A stretch of DNA of 64,000 bases from Mobula hypostoma (lineage: Eukaryota), in assembly GCF_963921235.1 (NCBI RefSeq), contig NC_086097.1, positions 96,784,001-96,848,000 of the forward strand, written 5' to 3'. How positions within the stretch are numbered: the stretch's first letter is position 1; every line of letters starts with the position of its first letter. The notes beneath the pieces were generated by a model. That model was not told where the DNA came from. It made no database searches and worked only from the letters and a program-made list of their open reading frames with translations. Below are positions 1 through 56,429 of the stretch, in pieces. Both the position numbers and the translations under genes were made by a program.

Positions 1-74
1 TCATCGTCGACGCTGTCTAGCTCCTCTTCGTCGTTGTAATAGTCGACAATGGGTGAGAGGAGAGCTGCGGACAT
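1..74 (-). pseudogene. SUDS3: SUDS3-like N-terminal coding fragment (captured host cDNA) inside a Gypsy element; continues beyond window start
   Basis: Minus strand from ATG at 74-72 reads MSAALLSPIVDYYNDEEELDSVDD, resembling the vertebrate SUDS3 N-terminus (MSAA..LL.P..EYY.E.DEELES.EDDE). CpG-rich, unlike the flanks. Only 24 codons are visible. Confidence 0.72.
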
Positions 75-1746
75 CTTCCCTGCCAAGCTGCCCTCCTTTG
101 TTGACACATCTAGTGCCTTGATGGTCTTCCAATCCAACTGGACTTTCCTGAGCCATTCACGTCCCAGCAATGGTGGTACTCCATTGTTCAGTACATAGAG
201 GTTCAGCTGCTGTGTTTTGTCTCCGTAGGTCACTGTCACTTTAATTTTGCCTTTGGGACGCACTTTCCATCCTGTGTAAGTCTTTAGCAGTAGTTTAGTT
301 TGTTTCAGAGGTATGTGAGAAAACAGTCATTTGTAATCATGTACAGAGATCACTGTTAAAGCTGAGCCTGTGTCCAACTCCGTTTTCAGTCTCACGCCCG
401 CCACTTGTGGAGTTATCCATATTACTCTTTGATCATCTGTCTCTTTCATGCTGTGAAGTTGCAGACAAGACAATTCACTTTCGTCTGAGTCGTTTTCATC
501 AGAACTGCTTTCTTTCATTTTGTGTACATTGTTGTGTTTTCCTTTCTGGGGTTTCTTGTTTCTCTGTATTTTGTCCTTTTTCTGCTGTTTACTAGCTTTG
601 CATACTCTGCCAGTGTGGCCCTGTTTGCCACAGTTTCTGCATTCTTTGTCTTTAAACCAACAATCATCAGGGTTATGTGGTATGGTCCCACAATGGTAAC
701 ATTGTTTACTAGCTTTGCATACTCTGCCAATGTGGCCCTGCTTGTCACAGTTTCTGCGTTCTCTGTCTTTAAACCATGTGACATGTTCCCACAGCAGTAA
801 CATTTCTTTCCTTCATTTCTGCTCAGTGACATTTTATTCGTAGCATATTCCAGAGATTTTTGTTGTATCTGTGAGGCACCCCATGCTGCTGTTTCCGTTG
901 ATATTACAATGTTCAGCACCTTCTCGAATGTAAGGTCTTTTTCACCCAGGAGCTTCTTCTGTGTGGTTTCACAGTGCGTGCCACACACTAACCTGTCCCT
1001 CAATGCATCCGATAGACCAGCTCCAAATTGACAATGTTCGGATAATTTGTGCAATTCAGCACAATATTAAGAAATACTTTCATTTTTGCTCTGATTCCGA
1101 TTGTGAAATATAAATTTTACAGCAATGATCAGTGGTTTGGGGTTTAAATGCTGTTGGAGAGTGTCTACTATTTGCTTGAACGTTTTGTCAGCTGGCTTTT
1201 CAGGGGTTAACAAGCTCCGTAGCAGGCCGTATGTTTTTGCTCCCATAACACTGAGTAAGTCACTGGCTTTCTTTTCATCATTACCATCATTAGCATCACA
1301 ATGTAACTCCACTCTCTCACTGTAAGTTGCCCAGTCTTCAATGCCACTATCAAATGCTGTAATGGTTCTAATCATCACAATCTTTGTTATGTTAATTTAG
1401 CCCCGTTTTCCCCTTGTTTTCTTTTTGACTCGCCTATCCTTTTTGCTAGAACCATGAGTGCACTCCATCTAGATCTGTGTGTCGCTTCTTTTTATCTTGC
1501 TTTTGGGGCAGGCAGACCCTCAGCCCTGGGGGTCAGCGCCGGCTGTGGTCTTGCCTGGACGTGCTGCAGCTCTATCTGTGTCTCTTGGTCTCCCGACATT
1601 CCCGACCCTGGCTGTGCTCCCACTTCCTTTTAGATTCGCAGCCTCGCTCTGCCTCCTTCTCTCGCTCCTTGGCTTATTCCTTGCTCTCTTTCTGCGAGTG
1701 CTGTTATCAACTAATAGACGGCGTTCCGATAAGATGTAGGTTCATT

Positions 1747-1759
1747 AACCTCGTCACCA
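1747..1759 (-). promoter_or_regulatory. Primer-binding site (tRNA-Ser(GCT)-like) of the Gypsy element
   Basis: Minus strand TGGTGACGAGGTT, 3 nt downstream of the LTR end; resembles the complement of the tRNA-Ser(GCT) 3' end (TGGCGACGAGG). Confidence 0.7.
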
Positions 1760-1762
1760 ATG

Positions 1763-1923
1763 TGTTGTGTATGTGGCCAGGTTACACAGTAATGCTGTTA
1801 GTGAAAACACCGGAGGTGGGAGCTAAGTTTCATGGTTCTTTACTGGCTGAATCCGAACTCAGCACACACATGTACAGATCAATACACGCCTAATAGTGCA
1901 TGCAACGACGTGTCCCTACAACA
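1763..1923 (-). repeat. 5' LTR (161 bp) of the Gypsy element
   Basis: Inverted termini TGTTG...CAACA adjacent to the PBS. Confidence 0.8.
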
Positions 1924-2116
1924 TAAAGTAGTCCCTTATTACACTGTAGGCCATACGGTACATCCATAATTGCCATTTTTAAAGGTGTCATATTTGCTTA
2001 AGGATGCAAAAACAATTAGCACTGGGAGAAAGATCAAGGCTAACAGTATAGTATGTGAATGTGGAGCAAGAGGGAGAGAAAATTATTTTAATGAATATTT
2101 TTTTGTTCTTTAACAG

Positions 2117-2170
2117 CAACAAAAAACAGGACAATACTGCAAGATGGTCTCCACCAGAGAACTACAAAAA
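2117..2170 (+). CDS. ZFYVE19: ZFYVE19 (ANCHR, abscission/NoCut checkpoint regulator) internal exon, post-FYVE
   Basis: taacag|...|gtaagg; encodes NKKQDNTARWSPPENYKK (human ASKWSPPQNYKK); phase 2-2. Confidence 0.93.
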
Positions 2171-2374
2171 GTAAGGGTTGCTTCCAGATTGGTGGATTGT
2201 ATTTATAACATACATTAGAGAGTGCCGATGTAATATAAAACTGCAACTTCTTTGGATTACTTTATTGCTTTAAAATTCGGATAGCTAGATCAGAATGGTA
2301 TCGATGGAAAGCTAGCAAAGATGTGGGAAATTAAGTAGACGAGTTAATCTTCATTCAGTATAAATGACTCATTG

Positions 2375-2600
2375 GATCAGTAGTTAGTGTTCCAGCAACT
2401 GGGTTCAATTCTAGCCCGTGTGTGCTGAGTTCCTCGTTGTCCCTGGGTGCTCTTGTTTCCTCCGACATTGCTATGACTTGCTGGTGGGTTAATTAACTGG
2501 TGTAGGTCGCCTGTATTGTAGGTGAGTGGCAGATAAATTAGGGGAGTTGATGAACTACGACAGAGAATAGTTTACAGGGAAATAAAGAGACAAATTAATA
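2375..2600 (+). mobile_element. Degenerate V-SINE (HE1-like)
   Basis: B-box-like gggttcaattc followed by a decayed V-domain (ctgggtgctcttgtttcctcc). Confidence 0.5.
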
Positions 2601-2977
2601 TCATGGGAATGCTTTGAGGGTTGACATTCAGTAGGCTAAATGTTTTCCCTTGTGTCACTATGAAATATGATTTGAGTAAATGAGTATGTGTAGATTAGTG
2701 ATTGGTGGTTAGAACAGATGTAGTGGGCTTAAGGTCCTCTTTTTTTGTTGTATGACTGAATGGCTTCATGGACATGGGCACTGTGACCATCTCCTAACTG
2801 CCTTTGAGCTATATCCTTGCTAAAGTTCAAGTGGAGATGATGAGGTATGGAAGCTCACTAATGTGAATAATTGAACTTTGAGTGATTAGTACATTTTCAA
2901 CACAGTACTACCATTTACCAGCTATATTTTTTACTTCTGGATGAGAAATGTCTTTACAAATTGAAATCAGACCTTGA

Positions 2978-3345
2978 CCATAAGACATAGGGGCATAATT
3001 AGGCTGTTCAGCCCATTGATTCTCCTCCGCTATTCATCATGGCTGATCCCGGATCCCACTCAACCCCATACACCTGTCTTTTTGTCATATCCTTTGAAGC
3101 CCTGACGGTCAGGAAACTATCAACTTCCGCCTTAAATATACCCACGGACTTGACCTCCACTACAGACTGTGGCGGAGCATTCCACAGATTCACTACTTTC
3201 TGGCTAATAAAAAAAATTCCTCCTTACCTCTGTTCGAAAAGGTTGCCCATCAATTTTGAGGTTATGCCCTCTGGTTCTGGATGCCCCCACCATAGGAAAC
3301 ATCCTCTCCACGTCCACCCTATCTAGTCCTTTCAACATTCTGTTA
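2978..3345 (-). mobile_element. CR1 LINE 3' fragment
   Basis: NLWNAPPQSVVE..SVGIFKAEVD ORF2 C-terminus plus CR1 3' UTR and tail. Confidence 0.8.
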
Positions 3346-4901
3346 TTCTAAATTAAAGGGTCTTGTTGATAGTAAACCAAAGAATGATAAAGAGACCTTT
3401 GTCAGTTAACAAATGGGCTGTGGAACGAAAAATGGCTTTCAAATTCAGTAAGTGTGAGGAGATGCATTTTGGACTGTAAACGAGATAGACCTGGTGATGT
3501 GGAACAGATGGACCTGGGAGTACTAGTGCAGAGTTTGTTGAAATCAGCAGCACAAGCAGTTTCTTTTGGCATGTGAGATAATTTTAAATTCCCCTCAAAC
3601 ATCTAAGCAATTATTATGATCACTGATCTTCTGTTATTTTCTGAGTCACTTTTAAACATTTTTTGCCCGTTTTTCTGTAGCATCAGAAGGGACTCCCATG
3701 TGTCCATTTCCAAAGTGATCTTTTGAAAAGTACTGTGTTCTGTGCAAATACCCTTAAAACCATCATCTGCTCGCTTGATACACTACTTTTTGAGGTTCTA
3801 CTCGCAGTTCACTTCACTTCCCCTGAAGGATACAAAAAAAAAGCAAGTAAGGGAATTGGACGCCTACTTAAAAACGGAGAAATTGAAGGGTGATTGAGAA
3901 ATATTGGAAAAGTGAGAGTGAGCCAGCCAGAGTCCAACTACAATTTTTTCTTTCTTTTCCTAATTATAATTTCCTGAATCTTCCACAATGAAATCTGCAA
4001 ACTCGTAACTTTTTGTGCTCTCAGTTCAACTTTAATCTTGGTCTTCTTCCCATTAGTATTTTTAACACTGAGGCTGGATAGGTGCTGTCATTCAGCTCTG
4101 AAAGTGACATCAAGACAGCTGTACAGTGTCTAAATTTGTCATCAATACTTCCTCTCTTTTTTTTCTGTTGGAATGCACCTGATTTTCCCTTGGTGTGCCT
4201 TCAGTGACATTGTAGAACCTCAGTAATGTGCTAGATAAGGATGAAAATATCTGTTAAAGAGTGGATGACTCTGCATGCAAACTTAAGTAATATTTAGTTT
4301 TGCCCCTTTGATTTACCACTCCCCCACTATTTTCCATTAATCCTTCAAATTTACTTTTTGTTTTAGTACGTATCCAATTCCCTTTGAAGTTTGGAGACAC
4401 AAGAGACTGCAGACGCTAAAATCTGGAGAAACAAACAATCTGCACGTGCTGATGCAGGGTTTTGACCCAAAATATCTACAATTCCTTTCCTCCCACAGAT
4501 GTCGCTCACCCCGTTCCCAGACTCCCTAGTGATGCTGTGAGGCCCTAGTTCTGATGCTCCCCTCAAACATACAAGGTTTGCTGGAACATTTATCACTTCT
4601 GCTGTGTAACCCCTTTTCTTTTAAAAAAAAGTGTGTTGCTGATTAACAACATCCAGTGATCTGGAGAATCTGCCAGTCCAGCATTGCTGAAGTTCTGCAC
4701 ATGCTTGATTAATGGAGTTCTACTGCAGTGAACAGTTTTTCTAAGATGACAGAACATGGTTTAGATGATTCAACCTAAAAAATTTTCTCTAATTCCGACT
4801 CTTTGTAACATGAGAGTTTTACAGAATGAAAGAAATGAGCAGCTGTAATAGCTAATTCCTCTAATAATCCCCGTCCAATAAAACTATCTTCTGGTCTGTA
4901 G

Positions 4902-5065
4902 GCGAGTAGCTGCTTTGGAAGCCAAACAACAAGGTCAAACTGCAGTCCAGAAAGCAGGGTGTCAGGCGCCCAGCATTGGCATGAAGTTTAAGCACTGGGA
5001 TCTTTCAAAAGAGGATCAAGCCATTGCTGAACGACTGGAGAAGCTGAAGGAAGAAACCAAACCAA
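4902..5065 (+). CDS. ZFYVE19: ZFYVE19 exon (MIM1-A-like motif)
   Basis: ctgtag|...|gttagt; RVAALEAKQ...EDQAIAERLEKLKEETKP; 164 nt, phase 2-1. Confidence 0.95.
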
Positions 5066-5120
5066 GTTAGTTCCATTGTTAATTACTGGATTACATTGTT
5101 AATAACTACATTGTTAATTA

Positions 5121-6310
5121 TTGCCTACTGACACAACCAATTGACAGACGACGCAATAGCCACTGCTCTACATACTGTCCTTGCAAATCTGGAGAAGAAG
5201 GCTGCTTATGTGAGAATGCTGTTCGTGCACTACAGTTCAACATTCAACACCGTAACTCCCTTCAGGCTCGACAGGAAGCTCAGAGACCTTGGCCTTGAGC
5301 CTGCCTTGTGCAGCTGGATCCTAGACTTCCTGTCAGATTGCCGGCAGGTGGTAAGAATAGGCGGCCTCACCTCCACCCATCTGACTGTCAACACAGGAGC
5401 CCCTCAGGGCTGTGTACTAAGCCCCCTTCTTTACTTCCTGTATACCCATGACTGTGTCGCCACCCACAGCTCTAATATGCTAATTACATTTGCCGATGAC
5501 ACTATATTGATTGGCCTAATCTCAAACAATAACAAAGTGACCTACAGGGAAGAAGTCATCCCTCTGACACAGCGGTATCAAGAAAGCAACCTCTCCCTCA
5601 ATGTCGCAAAAACAAAAAAACTGGTTGTGGAATACTGGAGGAATGGAGATGGGCTAGCCCCTATTGACATCAATGGATCTGGGGTTGAGAGGGTATACAG
5701 TTTTAAGTTCCTCAGTATCCACATCACTGAGGACCTCACATGGTCTTTACACACCAGCTGTATGGTGAAAAAGGCACAACAGCACTTCTTTCACCTCAGA
5801 CAGTTGAGAAAGTTTGGTATGGGCCCCCAAATCCTAAGAACTTTCTACAGGGGCACACAATTGAGAGCATCCTGATTGGCTGCATCACTGCCTGGTATGG
5901 GAACTGTACCTCCCTTAATCGCAGGATTCTGCAGCGAGTGGTGCGGACAGCCCTGCACATCTGCAATTGTGAACTTCCAATGAGTCAGGACATTTACAAA
6001 GACAGGTGTGAGAAAAGGGCCCAAAGGATCATTGGGGACCCGAGTCACCCCAACCACAATCTATTCCAGCAGCTAACATCCAGGAAACGGTACCGCAGCA
6101 TAAGAGCCAGGACCAGCAGGCTCCGGGACAGTTTCTTTCACCAGGCCATCAGACTGATGAACTCGTGCTGATTTGAGTGTATTTTTATGTTACATTGTTC
6201 TATTTATTATAAATTATTATAAATTACTATGATTGCACATTTGACAGAGACGTAAAGGTTTTTACTCCTCATGTATGTGAAGGATATAAGAAATACAATT
6301 CAACTCAAAT
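5121..6310 (+). mobile_element. Rex1/Babar-type LINE, 5'-truncated RT and 3' end
   Basis: ORFs 5141-5875 (GAPQGCVLSPLLY, FADD) and 5740-6171 (SRLRDSFFHQAIRLMN). Confidence 0.88.
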
Positions 6311-6819
6311 ATCTGTGACAACTTGCAACAGCAGCATTTGTTGTTCATCCCTGTTTGCACTTAAGGTTAGTCGTAAGGTGTCACCTTGAACCACAGTTGT
6401 CCCTGTGATGAAAGAAATCCTGCAGTGAGGTAAAGTGTTCCAGGATTTTGACCAAACAATAAAAAGAAGGGAAAATGTGTTCACTTGGGTGACAATAGCA
6501 AAAGGTTTTGTCTGCTCTTCGTAGAAATTTCATTGGCCAACAGGATTTTAGTTTAATACCTGCAAGCAATATAATGATCCTTGTTATAAATGGGTTTGTA
6601 AATGTTCGCACCAAGGTATTCTTATCCTGTTGATGTTGTGAGCCAATGTTTTTAACCCTTTTCAGATATTACCTCAACATGTTCTTTCTATTCTTGTGTT
6701 CCTTAAGCTATGATTTTACTCAGAACTGGAGTTGTAATCAAAAGGTACAATTTGTGGGTATACCATTTAATCCAATCTGAAGCTTCCAAACCATTGTTCA
6801 ATAATTCCAAGGTTCTGAT

Positions 6820-7110
6820 GTACAGTACCATAGCAGTTAGTGCAGTTGCTTTACAGTACTAGTAGTTACTGAGAGGGGTTCAATACTAGTGGTCTGTAAG
6901 GAATTTACACGTTCTCATGGCTGTGTGGATTTTCTCCAAGTGCTCTAGTTTCCTCCACATTCCAAAGATGTGTGGTTAGGGTTAGTGAGTTGTGGGCATG
7001 CTATGTTGGCACAAGGAATGTAGCCCCAGCACAATACTCCTTGTGATGCAGAATGGCGCATTTCGTTGTATGTTCGGATTCACATGAGAGACATAAACTG
7101 ATCTTTAATC
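6820..7110 (+). mobile_element. V-SINE (HE1-like)
   Basis: tRNA-like head (ggggttcaatac) and V-domain gaatttacacgttctc...gtgctctagtttcctccacattccaaaga. Confidence 0.65.
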
Positions 7111-7520
7111 TTTATTCTGTAATTAAAACAGTATCTATTCCCTCATCCGTGTATAAGATGCATCACCTTTTATTCATCTGAATACAGTGAAGTACTTATG
7201 AAGACAAAAAGTGTGAATGGAAGTCCATTTCAATGTTGAAAGATTCATCTCTGATATTCTGAAGCTGGGACAGCTTAATATTGATCCTCTCCAGAAAAAG
7301 TTTTTTTTCTTTTCCTGACATCAATTAGTGCAAGATTCAACAATACCAACACAGAGAAGCAAAAACAGGCAAAACTTGGACCAAGTAGATTTTTTTTTGG
7401 CGCAATCCTCAGCAGAAATGTAAAAACAAATCTGCAAATTTTAATTGAATAATCTGGATTAATCAAAGTGAGGCATTTCCTCTGTACTGTATTGTATCAA
7501 TATGTTTTTGTATATTGCAG

Positions 7521-7666
7521 AATATGTAGCCTCTCAGAAAGAGATTGAGTGTCGGCTAGCTGCATTGAAGAAGGAACCTCAGCGACCCATACCCTCCACC
7601 AGGGAAATGGAGGACAGGCTAGCCCTGTTAAAGGGCCAGACCCCACCATCACAGATCCCTAAACCT
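7521..7666 (+). CDS. ZFYVE19: ZFYVE19 exon
   Basis: ttgcag|...|gtaaga; YVASQKEIECRLAALKKEPQRPIPSTREMEDRLALLKGQTPPSQIPKP; 146 nt, phase 1-0. Confidence 0.96.
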
Positions 7667-8092
7667 GTAAGAATGTCTAACATCTTTGTACCATGCTGAA
7701 AGTATACTTACCACACTTTCATGTGACCTAAAAATTCATAGAGCCTTCAATTTGCTGCAAAAATATGAAAAGTAGCTTAGAAATTTATGATAGATTTGGC
7801 TCAATGTTGTGCACTTTTATATACTTCTGCCTGTGTCTCAACATGTGGATTTGGCACAATACAGAATATTATTTCTTGCTGGTGCATCAGTTCTTCACTA
7901 AATGGCCAAATTTAAAACTGATGCTTGACTCATTGTGTACAAGGACCAAACCTGGCCCTGCCCACTGCTGTGCTGACTGACATTAGCTGAATTTAGTGCA
8001 GTCTAGGAATTAACTTTGCAACCACCTGGTATTAGAGTCGTACTGCAAAGAAATAGGCCCTTTGGCACAACAGGTCCACACAAACTAAGATT

Positions 8093-8202
8093 CCATCAGA
8101 CATGGCAGCAGAATTAGCCATCCAACCCATCAGACATTAGGAGCAGAATTAACCATTCGGCCCATCAGACATAGGAGCAGAATTAGCTATTCAGCCCATC
8201 AG
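8093..8202. repeat. Tandem triplication (34-35 bp units) of a CR1 3'-end segment
   Basis: ccatcag recurs at 8093, 8127, 8162 and 8196; unit ccatcagacataggagcagaattagccattcggc. Confidence 0.75.
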
Positions 8203-8598
8203 TCTGCTCGGCCATTCCAGTAAAAGATGCCCCATGTGGCTGAGCCCTCGAATCCTGGCAACATGCTCATAAATCTCCTCTGCTCTCTTTCCACCGTAAC
8301 AGCATTTTTCCTTTACTGTGCTGAATGATCAGTGTTCTTGGGTGCTTGGTCATTCAAATTAATATTTTTGTTATTAAATACATAAATAGTGGCAGGAGTA
8401 GGCCATTTGGCCCATTGAGCCAGCTCTGCCATTCTGTAAGATCATGGCTGATACAACTAAATGCTTTTCCTAAAATGACCCTTCCTCGGCCTATCAAATA
8501 ACCAGCAATGAAAATAAAGCCCAACTAATCAGGAATTTGTCTGCAAAATCCCTTGCATTCAAGAAAGTTCAGTTGAATTCTCTGGCCTTTTATTTTAG

Positions 8599-17215: not shown

Positions 17216-19320
17216 CACACCTTTGGCAAGTGTTTCTGGGAATAATGCGGAAGGTGCAGGATCAGTTCATTCCAAAGAGGAAGAAAGATCCTAAGGGGAG
17301 TAAGGGGAGGCCGTGGCTGACAAGGGAAGTAATGGACAGTATAAAAATAAAAGAGAAGTATAACATAGCAAAGATGAGTGGGAAGCCAGAGGATTGGGAA
17401 ATTTTTAAAGAGCAACAGAAGGTAACTAAAAAGGCAATACGTGGAGAAAAAATGAGGTACGAAGGTTAACTAGCTAAGAATATAAAGGAGGATAGTAATA
17501 GCTTCTTTAGGTAGGTGAAAAGGAAAAAAGTAGTTGAGACCAAAATTGGGCCCTTGAAGACAGAAGCGGGTGAATTTATTATGGGGAACAAGGAAATGGC
17601 AGACGAGTTGAATGGGTACTTTGGATCTGTCTTCACTATGGAAGACACAAACAATCTCCCAGATGTAATAGTGGCCAAAGGACCTAGGGTAATGGATGAA
17701 TTGAAGGAAATTTATATTGGGCAGGAAATGGTGTTGGGTCTGAAGGCTGATAAGTCCCCGGGACCTGATGGTCTGCATCCCAGGGTACTTAAGGAGGTGG
17801 CTTTAGAAATCGTGGACGCATTGGTAATTATTTTCCAATGTTCTATAGATTCAGGATCAGTTCCTGTGGATTGGAGGGTGGCTAATGTTGTCCCTCTCTT
17901 CAAGAAGGGAGGAAGAGAGAAAACAGGGAATTATAGACCGATTAGCCTGACGTTGGTGGTGGGAAAGATGCTGGAGTCAATTATAAAAGATGAAATTACG
18001 ACACATCTGGATAGCAGTAACAGGATTGGTCCGAGTCAGCATGGATTTACGAAGGGGAAATCGTGCCTGACTAATCTTCTGGAATTTTTTGAGGATGTAA
18101 CTATGAAAATGGACAAGGGAGAGCCAGTGGATGTAGTGTACCTAGACTTTCAGAAAGCCTTTGATAAAGTCCTACATAGGAGATTTAGTGGGCAAAATTA
18201 GGGCACATGGTATTGGGGGCAGAGTACTGACATGGATTGAAAATTAGCTGGCTGACAGAAAACAAAGAGTAGCGATTAACGGGACCCTTTCAGAATCGCA
18301 GGCGGTGACCAGTGGGGTACCACAGGGTTCAGTGCTGGGACCGCAGCTGTTTACAATATATATTAATGATTTAGATGAGGGAATTAAAAGTGACATTAGC
18401 AAATTTGCCTATGACACAAAGCTGGGTGGCAGTGTGAAATGTGAGGAGGATGTTATGAGAATGCAGGCTGACTTGGACAGGCTGGGTGAGTGGGCAGATG
18501 AGTTTAATGTGGATAAATGTGAGATTATCCACTTTGGTGGTAAGAACAGGAAGGCAGATTATTATCTAAATGGAGTCAATTTAGGAAAAGGGGAAGTACA
18601 ACGAGATCTAGGTGTTCTTGTACATCAGTCACTGAAAGCAAGCATGCAAGTACAGCAGACAGTGAAGAAAGCTAATGGCGTGCTGGCCTTCATAACAAGG
18701 GAAATTGAGTATAAGAGCAAAGAGGTCCTTCTGCAGCTGTACAGGGCCCTGGTGAGACCATACCTGGAGTACTGTGTGCAGTTTTGGTCTCCAAATTTGA
18801 GGAAGGACATTCTTGCTATTGAGGGAATGCAGCGTAGGTTACAAGGTCAATTCCCGGGATGGCGGGACTGTCATATGTCGAAAGATTGGAGCAACTGGGC
18901 TTGTGTACTCTGGAATTTAGAAGGCTGAGAGGGGATCTTATTGAAACATATAAGATTATTAAGGGATTGGACACGCTGGAGGCAGGAAGCATGTTCCTGC
19001 TGATGGGTGATTCCAGAACCAGAGGCCACACTTTAAGAATAAGGGGTAGGCCATTTAGAATGGAGTTGAGGAAAAACTTTTTCACCCAGAGAGTGGTGGA
19101 TGTATGGAATGCTCTGCCCCAGAAGGCTGTGGAGGCCAAGTCTCTGGATGCTTTCAAGAAAGAGATGGATAGTGCTCTTAAAGATAGCCGAATCAAAGGT
19201 TATGGGGATAAGGCAGGAACTGGATACTGATTGTGGATGATCAGCCATGATCACAGTGAATGGCGGTGCTGGCTCGAAGGGCCGAATGGCCTACTCCTGC
19301 ACCTATTGTCTATTGTCTAT
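17216..19320 (+). mobile_element. CR1 LINE, 5'-truncated ORF2 with few lesions
   Basis: KSPGPDGLHPRVLKE, NYRPISLT, GVPQGSVLGP, (ctattgt)n tail. Confidence 0.94.
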
Positions 19321-23899: not shown

Positions 23900-25100
23900 G
23901 ATAATCCATGACCACCATCTTCTTCTGATTTTGGGTCATCTTCATGAGAGGATAAACCTCCCTCTCCTTGCAGAAAGATTAATAGAAATAATAGGACATC
24001 GCTGGCTCCCTCTTGGGCTTTCTGACACTGTATTATTGCCCATATTTCAATAAGTGATATGCCAACCTCCATTCATGTTGACAGGTACAGCAGGCAGTGA
24101 AGAAAGCTAATGGCATGTTGACCTTCATAACAAGGGGAGTTGAGTATAGGAGAAAACAAATCCTTCTGCAGTTGTACAGGGCCCTGGTGCGACCACACCT
24201 GGAGTATTGTGTGCAGTTTTGGTCTCCAAATTTGAGGAAGGACATTCTTGCTATTGAGGGAGTGCAGCGTAGGTTCACAAAGTTAATTCCCGGGATATGT
24301 TGAAAGATTGGAGCGACTGAGCTTGTATACACTGGAATTTAGAAGGATGAGAGGGGATCTGATTGAAACATATAAGATTATTAAGAGATTGGGCACGCTA
24401 GAGGCAGGAAACATGTTCCCGATGTTGGGGGAGTCCAGAACCAAAGGCCACAGTTTAAGAATAAGGGGTAGGCCATTTAAAACAGAGTTGAGGAAAAACT
24501 TTTTCACCCAGAGAGTTATGGATCTGTGGTATGCTGTGCCTCAGAAGGCAGTGGAGGCCAACTCTCTGGATGCTTTCAAGAAAGAGATAGAGCTCTTAAG
24601 GATAGTGGAGTCAAGGGACATGGGGAGAAGGCAGGAACAGGGTACTGATTGTGGATGATCAGCCATGATCACAGTGAATGGTGGTACTGGCTCGAAGGGC
24701 CAAATGGCCTACTCCTGCACCTATTGTCTATTGTCTATTCCCAACCAACACTTTTACTGGGAGATCAGGCCAAAGTTACTTGGATTAAAAAAATTCTGTT
24801 CAATGGTATCTTCGTGATACAAACTGACCTTCTCTTTATTTGACTTTTCGGTTTTATTTATTTCAGATTTCCAATTTAGTATCTTATCAGTAGAAAAGTT
24901 AACTATCATTCAGCCGCCTGAAGTAAATGGCTGAAATTCGGGGCATTAGAATCCAGCCTTCTCTTTTACTTAAAAGTAGGCAAAGACTCTTCATTGTTCC
25001 TGGGAGACAGTCTATTGGTGTGGCAGTACTATTTTCTTGACTGCTTTACCAGCAGTTCCTTTGGGAAAGAAAGATGATGTGGATATGTCTCCCAGTATTG
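23900..25100 (-). mobile_element. Probable ERV gag remnants (23900-24075 and 24740-25100) split by a CR1
   Basis: WAIIQCQKAQEG..FLQ.EGGL resembles a capsid major-homology region; position upstream of integrase on the same strand; very degenerate. Confidence 0.45.
24075..24738 (+). mobile_element. CR1 3' fragment (same family as 17216-19320)
   Basis: [18 protein letters not shown]2 C-terminus, near-identical 3' UTR and ctattgt tail. Confidence 0.92.
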
Positions 25101-29339: not shown

Positions 29340-30595
29340 CCATCCCATGGATTTGTCAAAGGCAGATCGTGCCTTACGAGCCTGATTGAAGTTTTTGAGG
29401 ACGTGACTAAACACATTGATGAAGGTAGAGCTGTAGATGTAGTGTATATAGATTTCAGCAAGGCATTTGATAAGATACTGCATGCACAGCTTATTGAGAA
29501 AGTAAGGAGGCCTGGGATCCAAGGGGACATTGCTTTGTGGATCCATAATTGGCTTGCACACAAAAGGCAAAGTGTGGTTGTAGACAGGTCATATTTTGCA
29601 TGGAGATCAGTGACCAGTGGTGTGCTTCAGGGATCCCTTCTCCATGATTTTTATAAATGACCTGGATGAGGAAGTGGAGGGATAAGTTAGTAAGTTTGCT
29701 GATGACACAAAGGTTAGGGGTGTTGTGGATAGTGTGGAGGGCTGTCAGAGGTTACAGCAGGGACATTAATAGGATGCAAAACTGGGCTGAGAAGTGGCAG
29801 ATGGAGTTCAACCCAGATAAGTGTGAGGTCGTTCATTTTGGTAGGTCAAATATGGCAGAATATAGTATTAACAGTAAGGCTCTTGGCAGTGTGAAGAATC
29901 AGAGGGATCTTGGGGTCCGGGTCCATAGGACACTCAAAGCTGTTACGCAGGTTGACTCTGTGGTTAAGAAGGCATACGGTGTATTGGCCTTTATCAGTCG
30001 TGGGATTGAGTTCAAGAGCTGAGAGGTATCGTTACATAAAAGACCCTGGTCAGACTCCACTTGGAGTACTGTGTTCAGTTCTGGTCACCTCACTGCAGGA
30101 AGGATGTGGAAACTATAGAAAGGGTGCAGAGGAGATTTACAAGGATGTTGCCTGGATTGGGGAGCATGCCTTATGGGAATAGGTTGAGTGAACTTGGCTC
30201 TTTCTCCTTGGAGTGAAGGAGGATGAGAGGTGACCTGATAGAGGTGTATAAGATGATGAGAGACATTGATCGTGTGAATAGTCAGAGGCTTTTTCCCAGG
30301 GCTGAAATGGCTAACATGAGAGGTCACAGTTTTAAGGTGCTTGGAAGTAGGTACAGAGGAAATGTCAGGGGTAAGTTTTTACGCTGAGAGTGGTGAGTGC
30401 GTGGAATGGGCTGCCGGCGACAATGGTGGTTGAGGCGGATACAATAGGGTCTTTTGAGAGAATCCTGGACAGCTACATGGAGCTTAGAAAAATAGAGGGC
30501 TATGGGTAACCCGAGGTAATTTCTGAAGTAAGTACATGTTTGATACAACATTGTGGGCCGAAGGGCCTGTGTTGTGCTGTGGGTTTTCTATGTTC
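29340..30595 (+). mobile_element. CR1 LINE 5'-truncated RT and 3' end
   Basis: AVDVVYIDFSKAFDK, FADD, QMEFNPDKCEV, CR1 tail. Confidence 0.92.
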
Positions 30596-43765: not shown

Positions 43766-43943
43766 GTAGTGACACCATGGGCTCTTGTCTTGCTAAGCAG
43801 TCTCACTTGTGGCACCTTGTCAAAGGCCTTCTGAAAATCCAAGTACACAACATCCACTGATTCTCCTTTGTCAATCCTGCTTATTATTTCTTCAAGAAAC
43901 TCCAACTGATTTGTCAGGCAAGATTTTCCCTCATGGAAACATG

Positions 43944-48312: not shown

Positions 48313-48574
48313 GAAGGTCATCGAGCTGCAGCTCCCATTCCTTAATACTTTCTCTGAGGAACTGCAGCTCAGTGCACCTGGTGCAGATGTGATTGTCTGA
48401 AAGGCTTGGGGTCTCCAAGAATTCCCACGTCTCACACACAGGACAAAACACAGCTCTTGGTGCCATTCCCACTGCACGAACTGTGCCCTAACAGAAGAGG
48501 AATGACAAATAAAGAGGAAGAAGCAACTTACCAGATACTTGTCTCACCCAAGCCTGATCTTGCCAAAGATCATC

Positions 48575-49610
48575 TTTGCTTTAGTTTTCTAATCCTCTCA
48601 AAATGAATGCTAACATTGCATTTGCTTTTCTTGCCAAGACTCAACCTGCAAGTTAGCCTTTGCGGATCTTGCACTAGGACTCTCAAGTTTCTTTGAATCT
48701 CTGATTTCTGAATTTTCTCCCCATTTCAAAAACAGGCTATGCCTTTATTATTTCTGCTGAAGTGTATGAGCATACACTTCCCAACACTATATTCCATCTG
48801 CCACTTTGCCCATTCTCTGAATATGCCTAAGCTCTTCTGCAGGCTCTTTAAATAACCTCCACATGTCAGATGTGGACTTGCCCCAAAACAGTTGTTCCCA
48901 ATTGACTCTCTCCAGTTCCTGTCTAATGTTGTCATAATTTGCCCCACAAAGTCCATACTTGTCTACAGTTATCTTAAAACATGAGAAGTTGTGATCATTA
49001 TTCCCTAACTGCTCATCATCTGGAAGGTTGGTCACCTGGCCAGGCTCATTATGCAACTCCAGGTCCAGTACAGCCCCTCCTCTTGTGTGAACTATCTACA
49101 TGTTGATTTGAGAAACCCTGCTGGATGCACCTAACATACTCTGTCGCATCTAAATCTCTAGCACTCAGAAGTCACAGTATATATTCGGGAATTTGGAGCG
49201 CTGTGTGACAACAATCTTATTGTTTTTACGGCTTTCCTTAGTCTGACTGCATATCTGTTGCTCAATGTCCCTGTGGCTACTGAGGGGTGGGGTGGTACAA
49301 TCCCATCAGAGTAATTGCACCCTTTCTGCTTTTGAGTTCAGCCCATACACAGTAGGCTCAGTGGATGAGCTCTCCATAGTGCAGCTGTGATATTGTTCTT
49401 GACTGTAAAGCAACTCTCCCCCACCCTTTACCTCCTTCTCTATCTTTTCTAAAACATTGAAACCCTAGGACAGTAAGCATTAATTCTCGTCCCTCTCTAA
49501 ATCAAGTCTCTGTAATGGCCACCACATCATAGTTCCATGTACTGATCCATGCTCCAAGTTTGTCACACTCACCCTGAAAATCCTCTAGCCTTAAAATACA
49601 CACTTCAAAC
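48575..49610 (-). mobile_element. CR1 fragments (RT C-terminal and EN pieces)
   Basis: EWAKWQMEYSVGKC; NEPGQV..LGNNDHN. Confidence 0.75.
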
Positions 49611-50274
49611 TCACACTATGTGTCCCATCACATATATTACTTTACTCCTGCCTGTTTTACTGGCCCATTCTCTCTCCTCTCCATCCCTCCACTTTTTAAT
49701 TTCCCAAACTCACAATACTTTTAGAAATATATATTGTTTTGGAATTTCTGGCTAGCTTAGTCTCAAACTCTCCCTTTTCCTTTCATACTAATACTAATCC
49801 TAAGTCTTTCTATTCTATCCAGTTCATGCAATAATGTGCATTTTTATTAAGCCTGATACTAGTTTTTAATTCTTGTACGGCACAAGAATGGAATTTTCTT
49901 CTCTCATTCAATCTTTTCTGTTCTGTGAATTCGAAAAATCCCTTTTGACAACTGCCATCATGTTACAACTGACACACCCCATAATGTTACGTCAATCGAC
50001 TTTGTCCAGTTTATACCTCATGACTCATAGTAATTCATTTAAATTTAAACAACTAGACTTATTCTTCTGTTCCTCAGACTGGGTGTAAAAATCAATCATA
50101 TCATGGTTGCTGCTACCTCGTATGGAAAGAAAGAAAGAGTGAAAAAAATAACAGGCCTTTTCACCCCTTCTGAGTCTCCTGTAAAGTACCCATTTCCACA
50201 CCATATTCTCATCAATTACTGTCCAGATTCCACACTCATTTCCACATGAAGGGTAATGCACAGCAGCTGGTTAA

Positions 50275-50428
50275 CCTCCCACCCTCCAACGGCAACAGGA
50301 GCCATACTTGGTCACAAGGAGAACGTGCAGACTTCATTCAGACAGCACTGAAGGTCAGGATTAAACCCAGCTCGCTGGAGCTGCCGGGAGGCATTTGTAC
50401 TGACTGTGCCACCGTGCTGCCGCCTTAA
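50275..50428 (-). mobile_element. V-SINE head fragment
   Basis: Minus strand ggcggcagcacggtggcacagtc...gggtttaatcctgacc...tctgcacgttctccttgtgacc. Confidence 0.6.
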
Positions 50429-50734
50429 AGTTGAAAGAGCATTAAGAGCGAAGAAAACGCATGTCAGCTGGTATATTGTATACATTTCTCTGACATAAAA
50501 CGTACCTTTTGAAACCTTTGAATTAATCCTGCCTCATTACACAATACCAGATCTGTTTTCCGTTTGGTTCCAATTCAACAAATCTATCTCAAAAACCGTC
50601 CCACAAAATCTTCATCCAGTTACCTTCACCAATCTTATTTTCTGTTAAATATATGAAGGTTAAAGACTCTCATGATCATCATATGATCATTCCATTTGAT
50701 GCCTTCTACAACAGTTTGATTTTTTTCTATCAAA

Positions 50735-50955
50735 GTATCTTCTGCACACCACTGTTGTTACACACCTTTAATTGAGTTACTGTCGCCTTCCTGTCAGCTT
50801 GAACCAGTTTGGCCATTCTCCCCTGACTTCTCTCGTTAGCAGGCTATTTTCAGCCCAGAACTGCAGCTCACTGGATGTTTTTGTTTCATGCACCGTTCTC
50901 TGTAAACTCTGGAGATTATTGTGCGTGGAAGTCCCAGGAGATCAGCAGTGTCTGT
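50735..50955 (-). mobile_element. Tc1-like transposon fragment
   Basis: gagttactgtcgccttcctgtcagcttgaaccagtttggccattctc...ctgcagctcactggatg resembles widespread fish Tc1 non-autonomous elements. Confidence 0.65.
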
Positions 50956-50959
50956 ATTG

Positions 50960-51410
50960 GAACCTGACAAGTAAGGAAGGTGAAAATGGGAATCAGTAGC
51001 AAAGAGGTGAAGGGCAAAATGGAATCACTTGAGGCAGGAGAATGAGAGGGGGGAAGGTGTATGGAATGAGAGGGGAGTGGGATGAAAATGGGTGGTGGGG
51101 GGCCAGAGAGGGATCTGATCAGAAGGGGAGACGGTGGGGAGGAAACACAGGAGAGAAGGGGAGGATGGTAGATGGATCAGAAAAGAGAGAGGGGGTGGGG
51201 ACCCCAGAAGGTGCAAGCTGGGAAAAGTTCATGGACTGTCGATTACCGAGGCAGAATATGAGGTGTTGCTTTTCTTGTGCTGGCCTCACTCTGGCAGTGG
51301 AGAAGACTGGGGTTGTGTGGGAATGGGAAGGAGGGCTGGGGTAGAATGCATCTGGGAGCTGAGGATGGCCACTGCGAACAGAGCACAGATGCTCAGCAAA
51401 TCAGTCAGCC
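50960..51410 (-). mobile_element. Degenerate Penelope-like GIY-YIG/pLTR fragment
   Basis: Purine-rich pLTR and remnant homologous to 14975-15530. Confidence 0.6.
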
Positions 51411-51654
51411 AGTATGAGGTTAAGTCTTGCCGACTAATTTGGTCATCTTATACCAGACTACCGATAACAGAAAATTCAATTGAAATCCCAATGATAACAT
51501 CAACCATTAAAATAGCCTGATTCAAGTAATGTGACACCCGCCACTAAAACCAAGAAGCTTCCAGAACGATACAGAGGCAACTGTAACCACTGAAAAAATC
51601 TCTGAACAATTGCATCTACAGAAGTCATACTATGAAAATACAAGCAAGCATAAC

Positions 51655-51898
51655 TGTTATGTTTTGTAACTGTAAACCATTAAGCTAATTCAAAGGAAGA
51701 CACAGGAGTCTAAAATGCATATTTAACTTTGAGTTTCATTTAAGCGAGGCACTGCACGAATCACGTGGTAACGTGATGATGTATGCATACACGTATTTGT
51801 ACATATACCTCATTATGAATTATTTAAACAAACAAGAACACTTAATCATCCAATATATAAGAATACTAAAATATTATTGAAATATTAAATGCACAGCA
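51655..51898 (-). repeat. 3' LTR (244 bp) of the Gypsy element
   Basis: TG...CA termini; immediately preceded on the minus strand by polypurine tract AGGGGGGAG. Confidence 0.8.
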
Positions 51899-52239
51899 CT
51901 CCCCCCTGCTTAGGTATATAGTCAAACTCCATAGAGAATGTACCTCAATTATAAACACTGTATACTATTATGCAACTGCTATATACAGACATCCACAGCA
52001 TAGCAAATTTTAAATTGTCACATTCAGGTATATAAATTTAATTGCTGTGGAAGATTTCTTACTCTTCTGGGATAACATCTTTCCTGACAAGGGGGTCACT
52101 CTACTTGGCAGGAGAGACTTGTGGCTGTGAAACAATCTGGTTCTGGGGCCTCCTCCATGGAGGTTGTCGGAGTTGACTCTGAGACTGTAGGAAGTGGTTC
52201 TGATAGCTCTGGACACCTTTCTCCTCCCTTACTCTCTCC

Positions 52240-52853
52240 GGACCTACTTCAATCCTCCTTTTTTTTCTTTCTCCCATTCCTTTTCTGTTTCCCATTCACA
52301 TTCTTTCTCTCCATCTCATACCCCCCCCCCTTTATTTCTTCTTCTAGTTTGTGCATCTTGATCTTGGGAAGATACATTTAGTTCACTGGAGTATTCTCAT
52401 GAATGCTTCTATTGCTCCATTTATGATCTGATTTTTCCTGCTGCTTTCCTCATCCACAACATCATCGAATGAATCCTCTGTTTTTGTATCTACATTGACT
52501 CCTTTTTTTGGCATTCCATTCATCCAGCTGGTTTTTGTCTTTGCATCTACTTTTACAAGCAGCTTTTTGTCTCCCAGTTGAACTTCATCCAATAACCTTA
52601 ATGCACACAGGGTAAATTCTGTTCTTTATACTCACAAAATTCAATTGCTTGCAACTTTTCTGAGACTCCTTGAACTCTCTTCCAGCTGCAAACCAAACCA
52701 CATTTCATGTGTAACTGCCTAGTTGACATATCAGAGGCTTTCTCAGATATGTTACCTACAGCTTTCATCATTTTTGTGCTTCCTCTGAGCAATATAGTCC
52801 TTTCTTTGTCCCGTCTGCTTTCCAAACAGAAACAAAGAGGTTGGCACCAATGC
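52240..52853 (-). pseudogene. RBM25: Intron-less RBM25 fragment (RRM and start of RE-rich region), frameshifted retrocopy inside Gypsy
   Basis: ALVPT..GKQTGQRKD..NDESC/VGNISEKASDMSTRQLHMKCGLVCSWKRVQGVSEKLQAIEFCEYKE/EFTLCALRLLDEVQLGDKKLLVKVDAKTK/QLDEW..NQIINGAIE../EYSSELN is collinear with vertebrate RBM25. Confidence 0.93.
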
Positions 52854-53469
52854 CTATTTGTCTTCTGTTGGGCAACAGTTCATGGTGCTTGGCATGGAGA
52901 CTATTGTGGCTTCATCCAGTACCTTACTTAATTCACTTTCAGTTGACTTTATTGTAGGGGATGTGGCATGAACATATTGAATGGATCTCCAATCAAGTTG
53001 CAGTTGTCTCAGCCAATCATGCTCCACAATGTTGGTCCTTCTGTTTTTACCACGTACAAGCTCAATGTGGCTTGCTGGCTGTTTTATTTCATAGTTATGA
53101 ATGTCATTCCCACAGGAGATATCTTTTCTCCAGTATGTTTTTAATTGAATATCTTCAGACTTCAGTTTGGTATCTTTGAAATGACATTCAAACTATTTTG
53201 TGGAATGACTAAAACAGCTGAGCCTGTGTGCAAGGAACACAAGATCTGTGTTGCTTGGATTCCAGCACCTGCAGATTTTCTCTTGTTTGTGAGTCAGTGT
53301 CCAATTTTAATTAACTTGCTGTTCACTTCTGGTGTAAGCGATATTGCTTGCCTATTACTAATTTTCAAACAGTAAATCTCAAGGCCACACAGTCCTGTGT
53401 CACTGCATCCTTACCAGTTTTTTTTCATCAGTAGCATGCAGATTAGTGCTGGTTTTGAAACTACAATAT

Positions 53470-53937
53470 GAGATTTACAAGGATGTTGTCTGGGTTGGAG
53501 AGCATGCCTTATGAGAATAAGTTGAGTGAACTCGGCCTTTTCTCCTGAGAGCGATGGAGGACGAGAACTAACCTGTTAGAGGTGTATATGATGGTGAGAG
53601 GCATTGACCACGTGGATAGTCAGAGGCTTTTTCCCAGAACTGAAATGGCTAACATGAGAGGGCACAGTTTTAAGGTGCTTGGAAGTAGGTACAGATGAGA
53701 TGTGAGGGGTAAGTTTTTTTTTACACAGAGTAGTGAGTGCGTGGAATGGGTTGCCGGTGACGGTAGTGGAGGCAGATACAATAGGGTCTTTTAAGAGACT
53801 CCCGGATCGGTACATGGAGCTTAGAAAAATAGAGGTTTCTGGGTAACCCTCGGTAATTTCTAAAGTAAGTACATGTTCAGCACAGCATTGTGGGCTGAAG
53901 GGCCTGTATTGTGTTGTAGATTTTCTATGTTTCTATG
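53470..53937 (+). mobile_element. CR1 3' fragment nested in Gypsy gag
   Basis: Same 3' end as 30130-30595; (ttctatg)n tail. Confidence 0.88.
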
Positions 53938-54249
53938 ACTTATTATCTTTTTCTTCTTCCTGTGCAGACCATTGACTTTTGTCTGCCTGACGTGCTCTTT
54001 GTATATGAACTATTTTGTTGCATTCCTTGCAAGTTTTGCTTTAAATCTGCATTGGTTTGGTGTATGTGAGCCCCTGCTACAATGGTAACACAGTTTGTTC
54101 AGCCAGGCAGGTTTCTGTTTAGACACTGCAATTTTGTTCACACTCACTTTTATTCTTGACTGCAACTCAATTTTATCTCTTTATGTAGTTTCCATTGAAA
54201 CATCAATTTCAACTGCTCTCTTAAATGCAAGTTGTGCTTCAGTTAGGAG

Positions 54250-56173
54250 CATAGTTCCCTCTAAGCTGTGCGCGTGCACACACACACATTTTTCAACCAG
54301 CGCACAAAGGAAATTAATGTGCGCACAAGAGGTTAGTTACCTAAAATAATGTGGTAGTTAATAATTATACTTATTGAAAATAATCTTTTACATAACTATT
54401 TCTGTTAACTGGTTTGTCGGTTTTTCAAATACCACAATGCATGTCACTAATGAACGTAACCTCACCTATCCTGTTCCGGTTTGTACAGCTGTATCACGGC
54501 GGCAGCCATGTTTGGCAGACAGTGTTCATATCATAAAGTTTACAAAGATCTGTTTCAAATCCTTTCGATAGCTTACTAAGTTTTTATTGGAAAAAATATT
54601 GATTCACTATGTCAAATTCAAAAGAAGCAAAGGGCGTGAAGTGCAAAAGAACTGCAAATTTGTTTGAAGTTGAATGGCTTAACAAAATAGTAGAAACTGT
54701 TACACTGGAAGCTCATGAGGTCATGAATGTTCAGCTACGAGAAATATTTATGTATGATTCAGAAACTGGAGTTATCTGTTTGTATTGTCGTGATGAGAAA
54801 GTTGCTGGAGAATTTGCTAGTGGAAAGAAATGGGTTGATATTTGGAAGTTTGACTTTTTGAAGCATCATTTGGCAAGTAAGTCGCATTTGGATAGTGTGC
54901 AAAAGCTCAGGCAACAGAACCCATCATTACGCATTACCCATTATAGGAGAACATGTTACAATTGAGTGCAAATGGGCGAGAGCAAAAATGATCAAACCCA
55001 GAGGAGATCAAAATTGAGGTACAAGAATGGTCAGCTTTTGATTTCTCCGCAATTGCAGATTGTGACTTCACATTTGGCAATAAACAAGTTTATGCCTTAT
55101 GTCTAAAATATCATGATTTTCTAGCTGAAAATATTGTAATAGTTAGACAGTTCCATGATTTCAAATTTTCCGTGCAAGAAAAAATTAAATCCAAACCGAT
55201 TTCAAGCTTTGCTCAAATGGTGGCATTTGTACTTCAAAATGAATAGTTTTGCAACCTTGCACAGTTGATGGACATTGGGGGAACCTTTCTTGCGTCTAGT
55301 GCGGACTGCGATTGAGGTTTTAGCTTAATGAATCAACTCAAAAACAAGCTGAGAAACCATTTAGGTGAATGCCATTCGGACATGTTAATGAGAATCAAAA
55401 GCTATCAATGGGATAGAAGTTCTATGAGTCGAGATAGAGTTTACAAAGAATGAGTAGATGCCAAAGACAGGAGAGAGAAAAAAATAACTGAGTGACTTAA
55501 ATATGATAAAAATTAAATATCTCCAACCTGATGGCATGAAAATGGATTTCTCTAACTTCTGCTAATGCCCCTCCTCCCCTTATCCCATTTCTTATTTATT
55601 TATTTATTTATTTATTATTCCCCCCCCCTTTTTTTTCTCTCTCTCTCTGTCCTTCTCACAATCACTTCTTGCCTGCTCTCCATCTTCCTCTGGGCTCCCC
55701 TCCCACTTTCTTTCTCCCTAGGCTTCCCGTCCCATGATCCTCCCCCTTCTCCAGCTCTGTATCCCCTTTGCCAATCAACTTTCCAGCTCTTGGCTCCATC
55801 CCTCCCCCTCCTGTCTTCTCCTATCATTTCGGATCTCCCCCTCCCCCTCCCCCTCCCCATCCCACTTTCAAATCTCTTACTATCTCTTCTTTCAGTTAGT
55901 CCTGACGAAGGGTCTCAGCCCAAAATGTCGACTGTACCTCTTCTTATAGATGCTGCCTAGCCTCCTATGTTCACCAGCATTTTGTGTGAGTGTGACTTAA
56001 GTATGTATGTTATTTTGTTGTTATTCTGTGCAGTTTTATATCAGACTATTTGTAAACCTACATAAACTGTCCCATGTGTGCATTCAGTGCGCACATCTTT
56101 TGTCACAGGAAAAAAATTTGCACAACCTAAGATTTTTGCGCACACTGACTACTAAAAATTAGAGGGAACATTG
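54250..56173 (+). mobile_element. hAT DNA transposon (internally deleted), 15-bp TIR, 8-bp TSD gttaggag
   Basis: TIRs catagttccctctaa / ttagagggaacattg; TSD at 54242-54249 and 56174-56181; N-terminal zinc finger (ICLYCR..LKHHLASKSH, 54609-54965) and dimerisation motif ASSADC..GFSLMNQLKNKLRN near 55290-55400. Confidence 0.92.
55501..55991 (+). mobile_element. Penelope-like 3' fragment nested in hAT, with decayed hammerhead motif (55897-55934)
   Basis: SLQPDGM.MDFSNF-like end, pyrimidine-rich pLTR, tagtcCTGACGAagggtctcagcccAAAAtgtcgactg; flanked by gtgacttaa duplication. Confidence 0.8.
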
Positions 56174-56429
56174 GTTAGGAGCCATTTTTGATTGCTTTCC
56201 TTTAAGATTCCACAAACTAAATGATATCTTAGCATATAATTAAGCCTAATACCGAATTAATAATGCTCAATCTCTTCAATTCAGCCACATTTGCCAAAAA
56301 GGACTCCTCTTCATTTTGATTCTGTTTCTGAAACCTAAAGCATTCTGCGCAGGATCAACAGTGGCTTTGATTCAAAGCAAACAGTATGTCTTTATACCCA
56401 ATGCACCTAGCAAAATCGGTACTCATTTC

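Follow-up and report, generated by a model that had tools for sequence, protein, structure and literature searches.

How can the spliced messenger RNA (mRNA) of a host gene come to stand in frame behind the protease of a long terminal repeat (LTR) retrotransposon, and how can this be seen with two different genes in a single stretch of 64,000 nucleotides? The question is raised by positions C1:96784001-96848000 of the Mobula hypostoma genome (the whole stretch, hereafter the window), in which one Gypsy-type element carries complementary DNA (cDNA) of SUDS3 (element 1, of family 1) and another carries cDNA of RBM25 (element 2, of family 2). Both families are non-autonomous derivatives of Ty3/Gypsy elements (Metaviridae). 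We consider it probable that these are two decayed families in which reverse transcriptase (RT), RNase H and integrase were replaced, once in each, by spliced SUDS3 or RBM25 cDNA, that the RBM25 sequence was acquired by splicing, and that the common layout is due to survivorship.

Two chimeric families and their copies

The evidence supports the view that both chimeras spread through the genome as populations of gag-protease-cargo elements; in each of them a single 5' junction is fixed, and copies number at least in the hundreds. Genome searches covered the 3.48-Gb assembly, and matches to the junction queries refer to the best-scored places only, out of longer first-look candidate lists. A query of 400 nt across the protease-SUDS3 join gave 40 scored places (1559 further first-look candidates remained unscored), all of which span the junction at 92-94% identity; with 821 nt across the RBM25 join, the 40 places scored of 5684 candidates also span it without exception, at 76-81% identity. 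Such a genome-wide population had been supposed in a first, sequence-only reading of the window, which proposed looking for multi-copy elements with identical junctions, and both the population and the fixed junctions were found.

The two captures are supported as independent events in different families. The LTRs of elements 1 and 2, which that reading had called unrelated, share only chance matches of 7-8 nt, and there is no DNA similarity between the two elements, both of which lie on the minus strand. At the protein level, gag-protease of the one is related to that of the other, with 27-48% identity (18/20 family 2 copies match). The family 1 protein (P0001) is 60-66% identical to single-reading-frame 'K02A2.6-like' Gypsy polyproteins with RVT_1, RNase H and rve domains, and autonomous family 1 copies are present in this genome, whose LTR, gag and protease match those of the chimera at 85-92% DNA identity and which continue with RT and integrase. 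The family 2 protein is about 35% identical to P0003 over residues 7-417. Both chimeras lack RT and integrase of their own, the cargo being in their place, and only the last pol codons remain. As candidates for an autonomous family 2, the best genome matches of the polyprotein P0025 proved to be of the family 1 type, and two fetched sequences had only 58-60% DNA identity to family 2. In a public Logan assembly, an open reading frame (ORF) of 498 amino acids (P0127) joins a gag 55% identical to that of family 1 and the start of a protease to an acidic stretch and C2H2 zinc fingers; its junction lies inside the protease, before the DTG motif, and it is possibly another cargo-bearing relative.

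Whole SUDS3 chimeras integrated as units, long ago, as is shown by target duplications around the LTRs together with diverged LTR pairs. Perfect 5-bp duplications flank 10 of the 11 SUDS3 copies with both LTR ends placed (window copy included), and 4 of 5 bp agree in the eleventh; the LTR pairs of 11 complete copies are 88-93% identical. All 19 further SUDS3 copies align to element 1 on both sides of the junction, several of them without an end or a stretch. In the RBM25 family the LTR pairs are 66-78% identical, so that this family is the older one, and its target duplications are not readable because the element ends are too decayed.

Element 1 occupies the minus strand from 1962 to 1 and continues beyond the left end of the window, in the order LTR, gag, protease, SUDS3 cDNA, LTR. 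Its parts within the window, with the duplication next to it, are as follows:

1967-1963, minus strand: target-site duplication ATGGA, copy 1 (copy 2 lies outside the window, after the 3' LTR)
1962-1763, minus strand: 5' LTR, TGTACC...ACAACA, 88% identical to its own 3' LTR
1744..1759, minus strand: putative primer-binding site TGGTGACGAGGTTAAT, read from the sequence and assigned this role from its position alone
520..1396 (approximate), minus strand: gag, with stops and frameshifts and repeated CCHC knuckles (Pfam zf-CCHC)
129..430, minus strand: protease, with DTG at 374-366 and QLDW at 140-129
87..128, minus strand: last 14 retrotransposon codons of the protease-RT linker, KTIKALDVSTKEGS; homology to autonomous copies stops at 87
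1..86, minus strand: start of the SUDS3 cDNA cargo, with 12 nt of 5' untranslated region (UTR), ATG at 74-72 and 24 codons; continues off the window

Only 86 nt of the cargo are thus inside the window, where the ORF 326-3 runs from protease through MSAALLSPIVDYYNDEEELDSVDD and off the end. The adjoining genome sequence holds a full-length intronless SUDS3 coding sequence with one stop and frameshifts, ending RRRSAA*, followed by a piece of 3'UTR, the last pol codons, the purine tract, the 3' LTR (1.2-1.45 kb beyond the left end of the window) and the second ATGGA. The identity of the cargo is given by Pfam Sds3 (E 7e-6, over the Pfam cut-off) and by SDS3 in PDB (E 6e-5). The window's SUDS3 copy (L009, ~3664, outside the window) is without 24 nt, eight codons of KENLIAEL-like sequence, which are carried by high-depth contigs of two public runs; the deletion is private to this copy.

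Element 2 lies on the minus strand at 56423-51655, is truncated at its 5' end at about 56423, has no 5' LTR and contains two nested insertions:

56174..56423, minus strand: gag fragment, with the truncated 5' end
54250..56173, no strand assigned: nested DNA-transposon-like insertion with inverted ends CAnnGTTCCCTCTAA, a gap in element 2 homology
53936..54249, minus strand: C-terminal part of gag, with CCHC knuckle
53467..53935, no strand assigned: second nested repeat, 85-88% identical to window 30132-30594
52902..53466, minus strand: protease and linker, with QLDW at 53000-52989; the retrotransposon part stops at 52902
52335..52901 (left end approximate), minus strand: RBM25 cDNA cargo, short form; a 48-nt cassette exon and four further exons, fully spliced, ending in a lysine-rich stretch
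51896..52334, minus strand: retained 3' internal retrotransposon part, with the end of pol and a purine-rich tract
51655..51895 (right end approximate), minus strand: 3' LTR, TGTGCA...ATAACA

The RBM25 piece matched 277 proteins at E<=0.001, and the names among the 120 listed are mostly RNA-binding protein 25; a PDB search with an RBM25 piece gave no match.

The junctions with SUDS3 and RBM25

The 5' junction of family 2 lies between 52902 and 52901, 29 codons after QLDW. The sequence-only reading had placed the start of RBM25 at 45 codons; the fusion itself was rightly seen, and the further 16 codons, counted there as retrotransposon, are a real RBM25 cassette exon. The parent gene is at C1 ~99.79-99.84 Mb on the minus strand, with introns, and was located with the C-terminal part of gar RBM25 (P0351), which the cargo lacks (~99.79-99.80 Mb), and then in the 30 kb upstream. 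Matches to the Pfam domain PWI had pointed to two other genes, which we take to be SRRM1-like and PRPF3-like. The cargo aligns to the parent exon by exon, with joins at exon ends, and it opens with the 48 nt of an internal cassette exon, VSMLYTMNRCPTEGKQ, at C1 ~99832586-99832633 (loci L051-L053), which is in frame with RBM25 and reads V S M L Y T M N R C P T E G K Q. In the parent the context is ...TGTCTCCCTCCCCCTTTTCAG|GTCTCCATGCTG...GGCAAACAG|GTAACC, with TTTTCAG before the exon and GTAACC after it.

Of six copies examined, five have a cargo that starts on the first base of this exon; in the remaining one it starts at the second base. The same peptide opens a sevengill shark protein annotated as 'RBM25-like isoform X1' (P0242), with identity over 14 residues, which indicates that the exon is conserved across ray and shark; in 14/20 RBM25 copies the protein match to P0242 starts at its residue 1. 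This shark model, of 220 amino acids, ends in what seems to be read-through into an intron, and the exon before it is the one at which the short cargo also stops. In the closest polyprotein (P0025) the sequence around the homologous site is QLDWRCIKNLQFSQPVIKSTEMKLNKLLEQAAP|VFEDC, as against QLDWRSIQYVHATSPTIKSTESELSKVLDEATI|VSMPSTMN in the window copy. The residue following the junction is, in 5/5 relatives (P0002, P0003, P0025, P0026 and L054), the valine of a VFE/VFK/VFM motif and, since valine codons begin with GT, a GT donor can be inferred on the element side. The best reading of this junction is therefore that an element donor was probably spliced to the acceptor of a host exon, the acceptor side being observed and the donor side deduced from the relatives. 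We estimate the chance that a random break in the mRNA would fall on the first base of an internal exon at roughly 1%, assuming an mRNA of roughly 3 kb with about 20 exons (round figures, not measured here).

The original RBM25 cargo was longer than that of the window copy, as indicated by matches to the RBM25 stretch that lies beyond the end of the latter (150 scored of 501 candidates, one of them being the parent exon). The subfamily of the window is a deletion derivative, in which about 320 nt were lost between two purine-rich stretches, and in the long and short forms the retrotransposon tail sets in at an identical point.

In family 1 the 5' junction lies between window positions 87 and 86, 14 codons after QLDW, with the SUDS3 ATG 18 codons after it; the latter distance is the one first proposed, and the retrotransposon homology itself stops at 14 codons. 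Homology between the chimera and autonomous copies stops at that same base in 2/2 cases: the autonomous sequence reads ...GGCAGC|AAGGCTACA (KEGS|KATSERLSQIL...) and the chimera ...GGCAGC|TCGGCGGGGAAG ATG. Contigs from four public runs, of guessed kind and used for junction positions and not for expression, agree with this, in that there are contigs that break at the junction base and then continue with the autonomous sequence. The protease-SUDS3 junction is bridged, by at least 31 letters on each side, in contigs of runs X1, X9 and X11, whose labels name three different organisms, so that the chimera is not confined to the assembled individual; for the fourth run, the bridging contig listed reaches no more than 25 letters to one side.

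Two types of 3' junction were found in family 1 with the one common 5' junction (20 copies). Type A, to which the window copy belongs, was recognised by motif in 9/20 copies, with two more having a mutated motif, and type B in 5/20, while four were untypable. In type A the SUDS3 3'UTR, 113 nt past the stop, joins the end of pol through a common CAGAC, a microhomology of 5 nt; type B contains about 210 nt more of 3'UTR, and pol resumes about 10 nt further on. The two types hardly differ elsewhere, with fixed differences too few to be used as subfamily markers. Since, in addition, neither 3' type can be derived from the other by deletion, the 3' end was formed twice, early, on one chimeric lineage. 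At the 3' internal end both families keep only the last pol codons and the purine tract. As to the SUDS3 parent gene, a 30-letter loose end taken as a candidate proved to be type B cargo (117 matches), the only one of these in which the CpG is intact came from a further element copy, and a junction pattern that excluded element bases gave one match, again an element copy.

The observations on both families can be accommodated in one account. An element would have inserted in sense orientation into the RBM25 intron upstream of the 48-nt cassette exon, and a transcript started in its LTR would have been spliced from the GT at the conserved valine codon of the protease-RT linker onto the cassette exon acceptor and on through the exons that follow. 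During reverse transcription, a non-homologous template switch would then have restored the 3' end of the RBM25 element, and at least one of the SUDS3 3' junctions would have arisen by a microhomology-guided switch. The resulting chimeras, which retained LTRs, primer site, gag, protease, last pol codons and purine tract, presumably multiplied with the enzymes of autonomous relatives, and it is probable that only those with gag-protease and one long reading frame spread.

Several observations weigh against this account. The autonomous family 1 sequence continues with AAGGCT after the junction, without a GT on the element side, and splicing therefore does not explain the SUDS3 5' junction; moreover, the SUDS3 parent gene was not found in this genome, where the loose-end and junction-pattern searches gave matches only to elements. 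For RBM25, the supposed GT in the linker would be a weak splice donor, the cassette exon begins with GTCT, so that an overlap of a few bases is possible at the junction, and the intron upstream of it holds no element remnant. For family 2 the searches of this genome yielded no autonomous relative, and the GT donor is deduced from protein relatives. With regard to the layout, three in-frame cases would occur by chance once in 27, noticing may have favoured in-frame cases, and selection for retention of gag-protease is deduced from three families only, including the one described next.

Reading frame, a third family and competing explanations

The cargo stands in frame behind the protease in both window copies, as had been noted from the sequence, and the same is true at the level of the families, where one frame is nearly free of stops through gag, protease and cargo. 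In family 1 the open frame has 0-15 stops per ~900-1000 codons, and the other frames 7-139, after removal of alignment columns present only in a minority of copies; 12/20 SUDS3 copies retain a single ORF across the junction. In the open frame, codon position 1 is taken by the start of the host ATG in family 1 and by the first exon base in family 2. Stops are equally absent from two frames where the sequence crosses the RBM25 3' junction.

A similar arrangement is found in intronless copies of a myosin tail in this genome. One of them (L060) has two LTR-like direct repeats of ~150 nt, 80% identical and about 2.9 kb apart. It also has a gag-like ORF, and the relatives of its protease are polyproteins of 1400-1500 amino acids with the integrase before RVT_2. 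As rve precedes RVT_2 in the relatives P0382 and P0427, this family is of the Copia type. The myosin tail begins ~20-25 codons past the SGHY motif of the protease, in the same frame, in both of the two copies that show the motif. SLU7, tried as a further cargo from the list of the preprint census discussed below, is a single intron-bearing gene, with 5/5 matches at one locus. Given that cargo follows gag-protease in two superfamilies with different gene orders, a mechanism specific to the protease/RT boundary cannot explain the layout, and we infer from the three families that it recurs through selection, or survivorship, of chimeras that keep gag-protease and one long frame.

It had been suggested, on the contrary, that the boundary between protease and RT is a capture hotspot, at which RT leaves the element RNA and copies a co-packaged host mRNA, so that captures recur there. 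Both Gypsy junctions do lie inside the ~30-codon protease-RT linker, that of family 1 has no splice signal, and the type A 3' junction of SUDS3 fits template switching, which in its microhomology-guided form is documented for animal LTR elements in the available part of PMC5131818. The two junctions are, however, 16 codons apart in homologous coordinates, that of RBM25 falls on the splice acceptor of an internal exon, where a random break is as rare as estimated above, and the Copia-type family shows the same layout with integrase rather than RT after the protease. We therefore regard a hotspot as unlikely and do not maintain the suggestion; template switching, which had been proposed as the general route, is kept for the SUDS3 3' junction with CAGAC and given up for the RBM25 5' junction. 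That the cargoes are ordinary processed pseudogenes, made by long interspersed nuclear elements (LINEs) and landed in dead Gypsy elements, has next to no probability. LINE fragments are common in the window, and nothing else was found that would speak for it, whereas the junctions are the same in every scored copy and pol is replaced, not interrupted. A poly(A) tail and a target duplication belonging to the cargo itself, the signs of such an origin named in the sequence-only reading, were not seen: where the 3' end of the cargo was mapped, in SUDS3 junction types A and B and in one copy of the RBM25 long form, no poly(A) was present, and the duplications flank the LTRs. What both families show, as LTR-mediated retrocopies do, is host cDNA free of introns that is enclosed in a discontinuous LTR element and has neither poly(A) nor L1-type duplications, and this, together with the exon joins, bears out the earlier view of independent captures of spliced host mRNA.

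It can also be asked whether the cargo worked as an accessory gene, that is, whether an in-frame Gag-protease-cargo protein was made and cut, a host protein such as SUDS3, a subunit of the Sin3-HDAC co-repressor, aided the spread of the element, and the cargo was kept by selection. Gag, protease and cargo once formed a single ORF in both families, and selection on them can be assessed from the codon positions of variants common to at least two copies as against singletons, with no consensus built:

Family 1 gag-protease: shared variants at positions 1/2/3, 53/40/73 (p 0.003); singletons 145/135/128
Family 1 SUDS3: shared variants at positions 1/2/3, 38/25/46 (p 0.03); singletons 105/111/95

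The enrichment of shared SUDS3 variants at third positions, with flat singletons and a pattern similar to that of gag-protease, would be in favour of such a function. The SUDS3 signal, on the other hand, has p 0.06 without CpG sites and is lost at a three-copy threshold (23/13/19), and recombination with the parent mRNA could mimic it; the RBM25 cargo has no third-position bias (share 0.25-0.32) and was shortened by the ~320-nt deletion in one subfamily that spread, and the three cargoes have no common function. Evidence for selection on the cargo is thus weak for SUDS3 and absent for RBM25. We read the cargoes as passengers, leaving the case of SUDS3 open, and consider a working accessory gene rather improbable.

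The window contains other features besides the two chimeras. The 1.9-kb insertion at 54250-56173 in element 2 is flanked by an 8-bp duplication, CTCCTAAC (56181-56174 and 54249-54242), which, with its inverted ends, suggests a hAT-type DNA transposon; its plus-strand ORFs at 54603-54965 and 54992-55246 had no Pfam match. On the plus strand, 5132-5875 holds a LINE reverse-transcriptase ORF (RVT_1) whose C-terminal 40 residues match Pfam ALKBH8_N (E 7.5e-10). Two stretches of ~670 nt, 18647-19320 and 24082-24738, are 5.4 kb apart and 89-91% identical (repeat families D2, D3 and D11), and GC skew is strongly positive around this pair (16-34 kb).

Comparison with known systems

Gag-onc fusion proteins are made by acutely transforming retroviruses, and a model of retroviral oncogene capture was reportedly put forward by Swain and Coffin in 1992. 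In the available part of PMC4276931, capture of oncogenes by these viruses is described as following a route of read-through and splicing, with helper dependence. The likeness to what is proposed here for RBM25 lies in a sense insertion upstream of or inside the host gene and in the joining of an element donor to a host acceptor. Further points in common are the loss of pol, the gag-cargo fusion in frame, recovery of the 3' end through recombination in the course of reverse transcription and spread with helpers, the last of which would apply here by inference. Unlike those viruses, the families described here are germline retrotransposons without env, there is no sign that the cargo gave a growth advantage, and the product is a large genomic repeat family. 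A much broader proposal, that in this lineage LTR elements are the germline counterpart of transforming retroviruses at a genomic scale, with repeated splice capture, spread of in-frame fusions only, and a SUDS3 cargo that was expressed, released by the protease and helpful in escaping silencing during amplification, seems to us improbable.

The RBM25 junction provides evidence at nucleotide level that a retrotransposon can take up a host gene by the read-through and splice route. In the available parts of the two sources, this route is described for retroviruses (PMC4276931) and animal LTR-borne retrocopies are ascribed to template switching (PMC5131818); earlier reports of splice capture by retrotransposons were not specifically sought. 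According to the part of the latter work available (Tan et al. 2016), such retrocopies are single loci or have few insertion sites, arise via double template switching, and as chimeras can retrotranspose again as pseudo-LTR elements. As in those cases, host cDNA here replaces part of the interior of an LTR element with both LTRs kept, there is microsimilarity at a junction (the 5-nt CAGAC of SUDS3 type A), and the mapped 3' ends have no poly(A). The differences are that at least hundreds of copies exist, that one 5' junction falls exactly on a splice acceptor in place of microsimilarity, and that the in-frame gag-protease-cargo layout recurs in three families. That two Gypsy families and a Copia one have this layout suggests that gag-protease and an uninterrupted reading frame are required for spread. 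In plants, maize Bs1 and other LTR elements likewise carry host gene sequence in sense orientation, with transduced ORFs in one or few copies according to the available part of PMC7264820; the families described here differ from them in having hundreds of copies or more, and in an animal.

A search of the literature for SUDS3 with retrotransposon and LTR found no description of a SUDS3-carrying element. A census of 244 vertebrate genomes (bioRxiv 10.64898/2026.06.26.734816) names SUDS3 as one of the five genes that lead the list of retrocopy parents in cartilaginous fishes; in the available part of its text, where the word Gypsy is absent, retrocopy numbers are tied to non-LTR elements and selective filtering. 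Our results suggest that, if such genomes hold the SUDS3 family, the SUDS3 count of that census reflects one LTR-borne capture that was then amplified. Counts of SUDS3, RBM25-like and myosin-like retrocopies or gene models in cartilaginous fishes can be inflated by transposon cargo, and are in that case not to be read as LINE activity or selective retention. What is new here is the description of the junctions at nucleotide level, the splice-acceptor result, the two SUDS3 3' junctions, the frame at family level and the comparison of three families.

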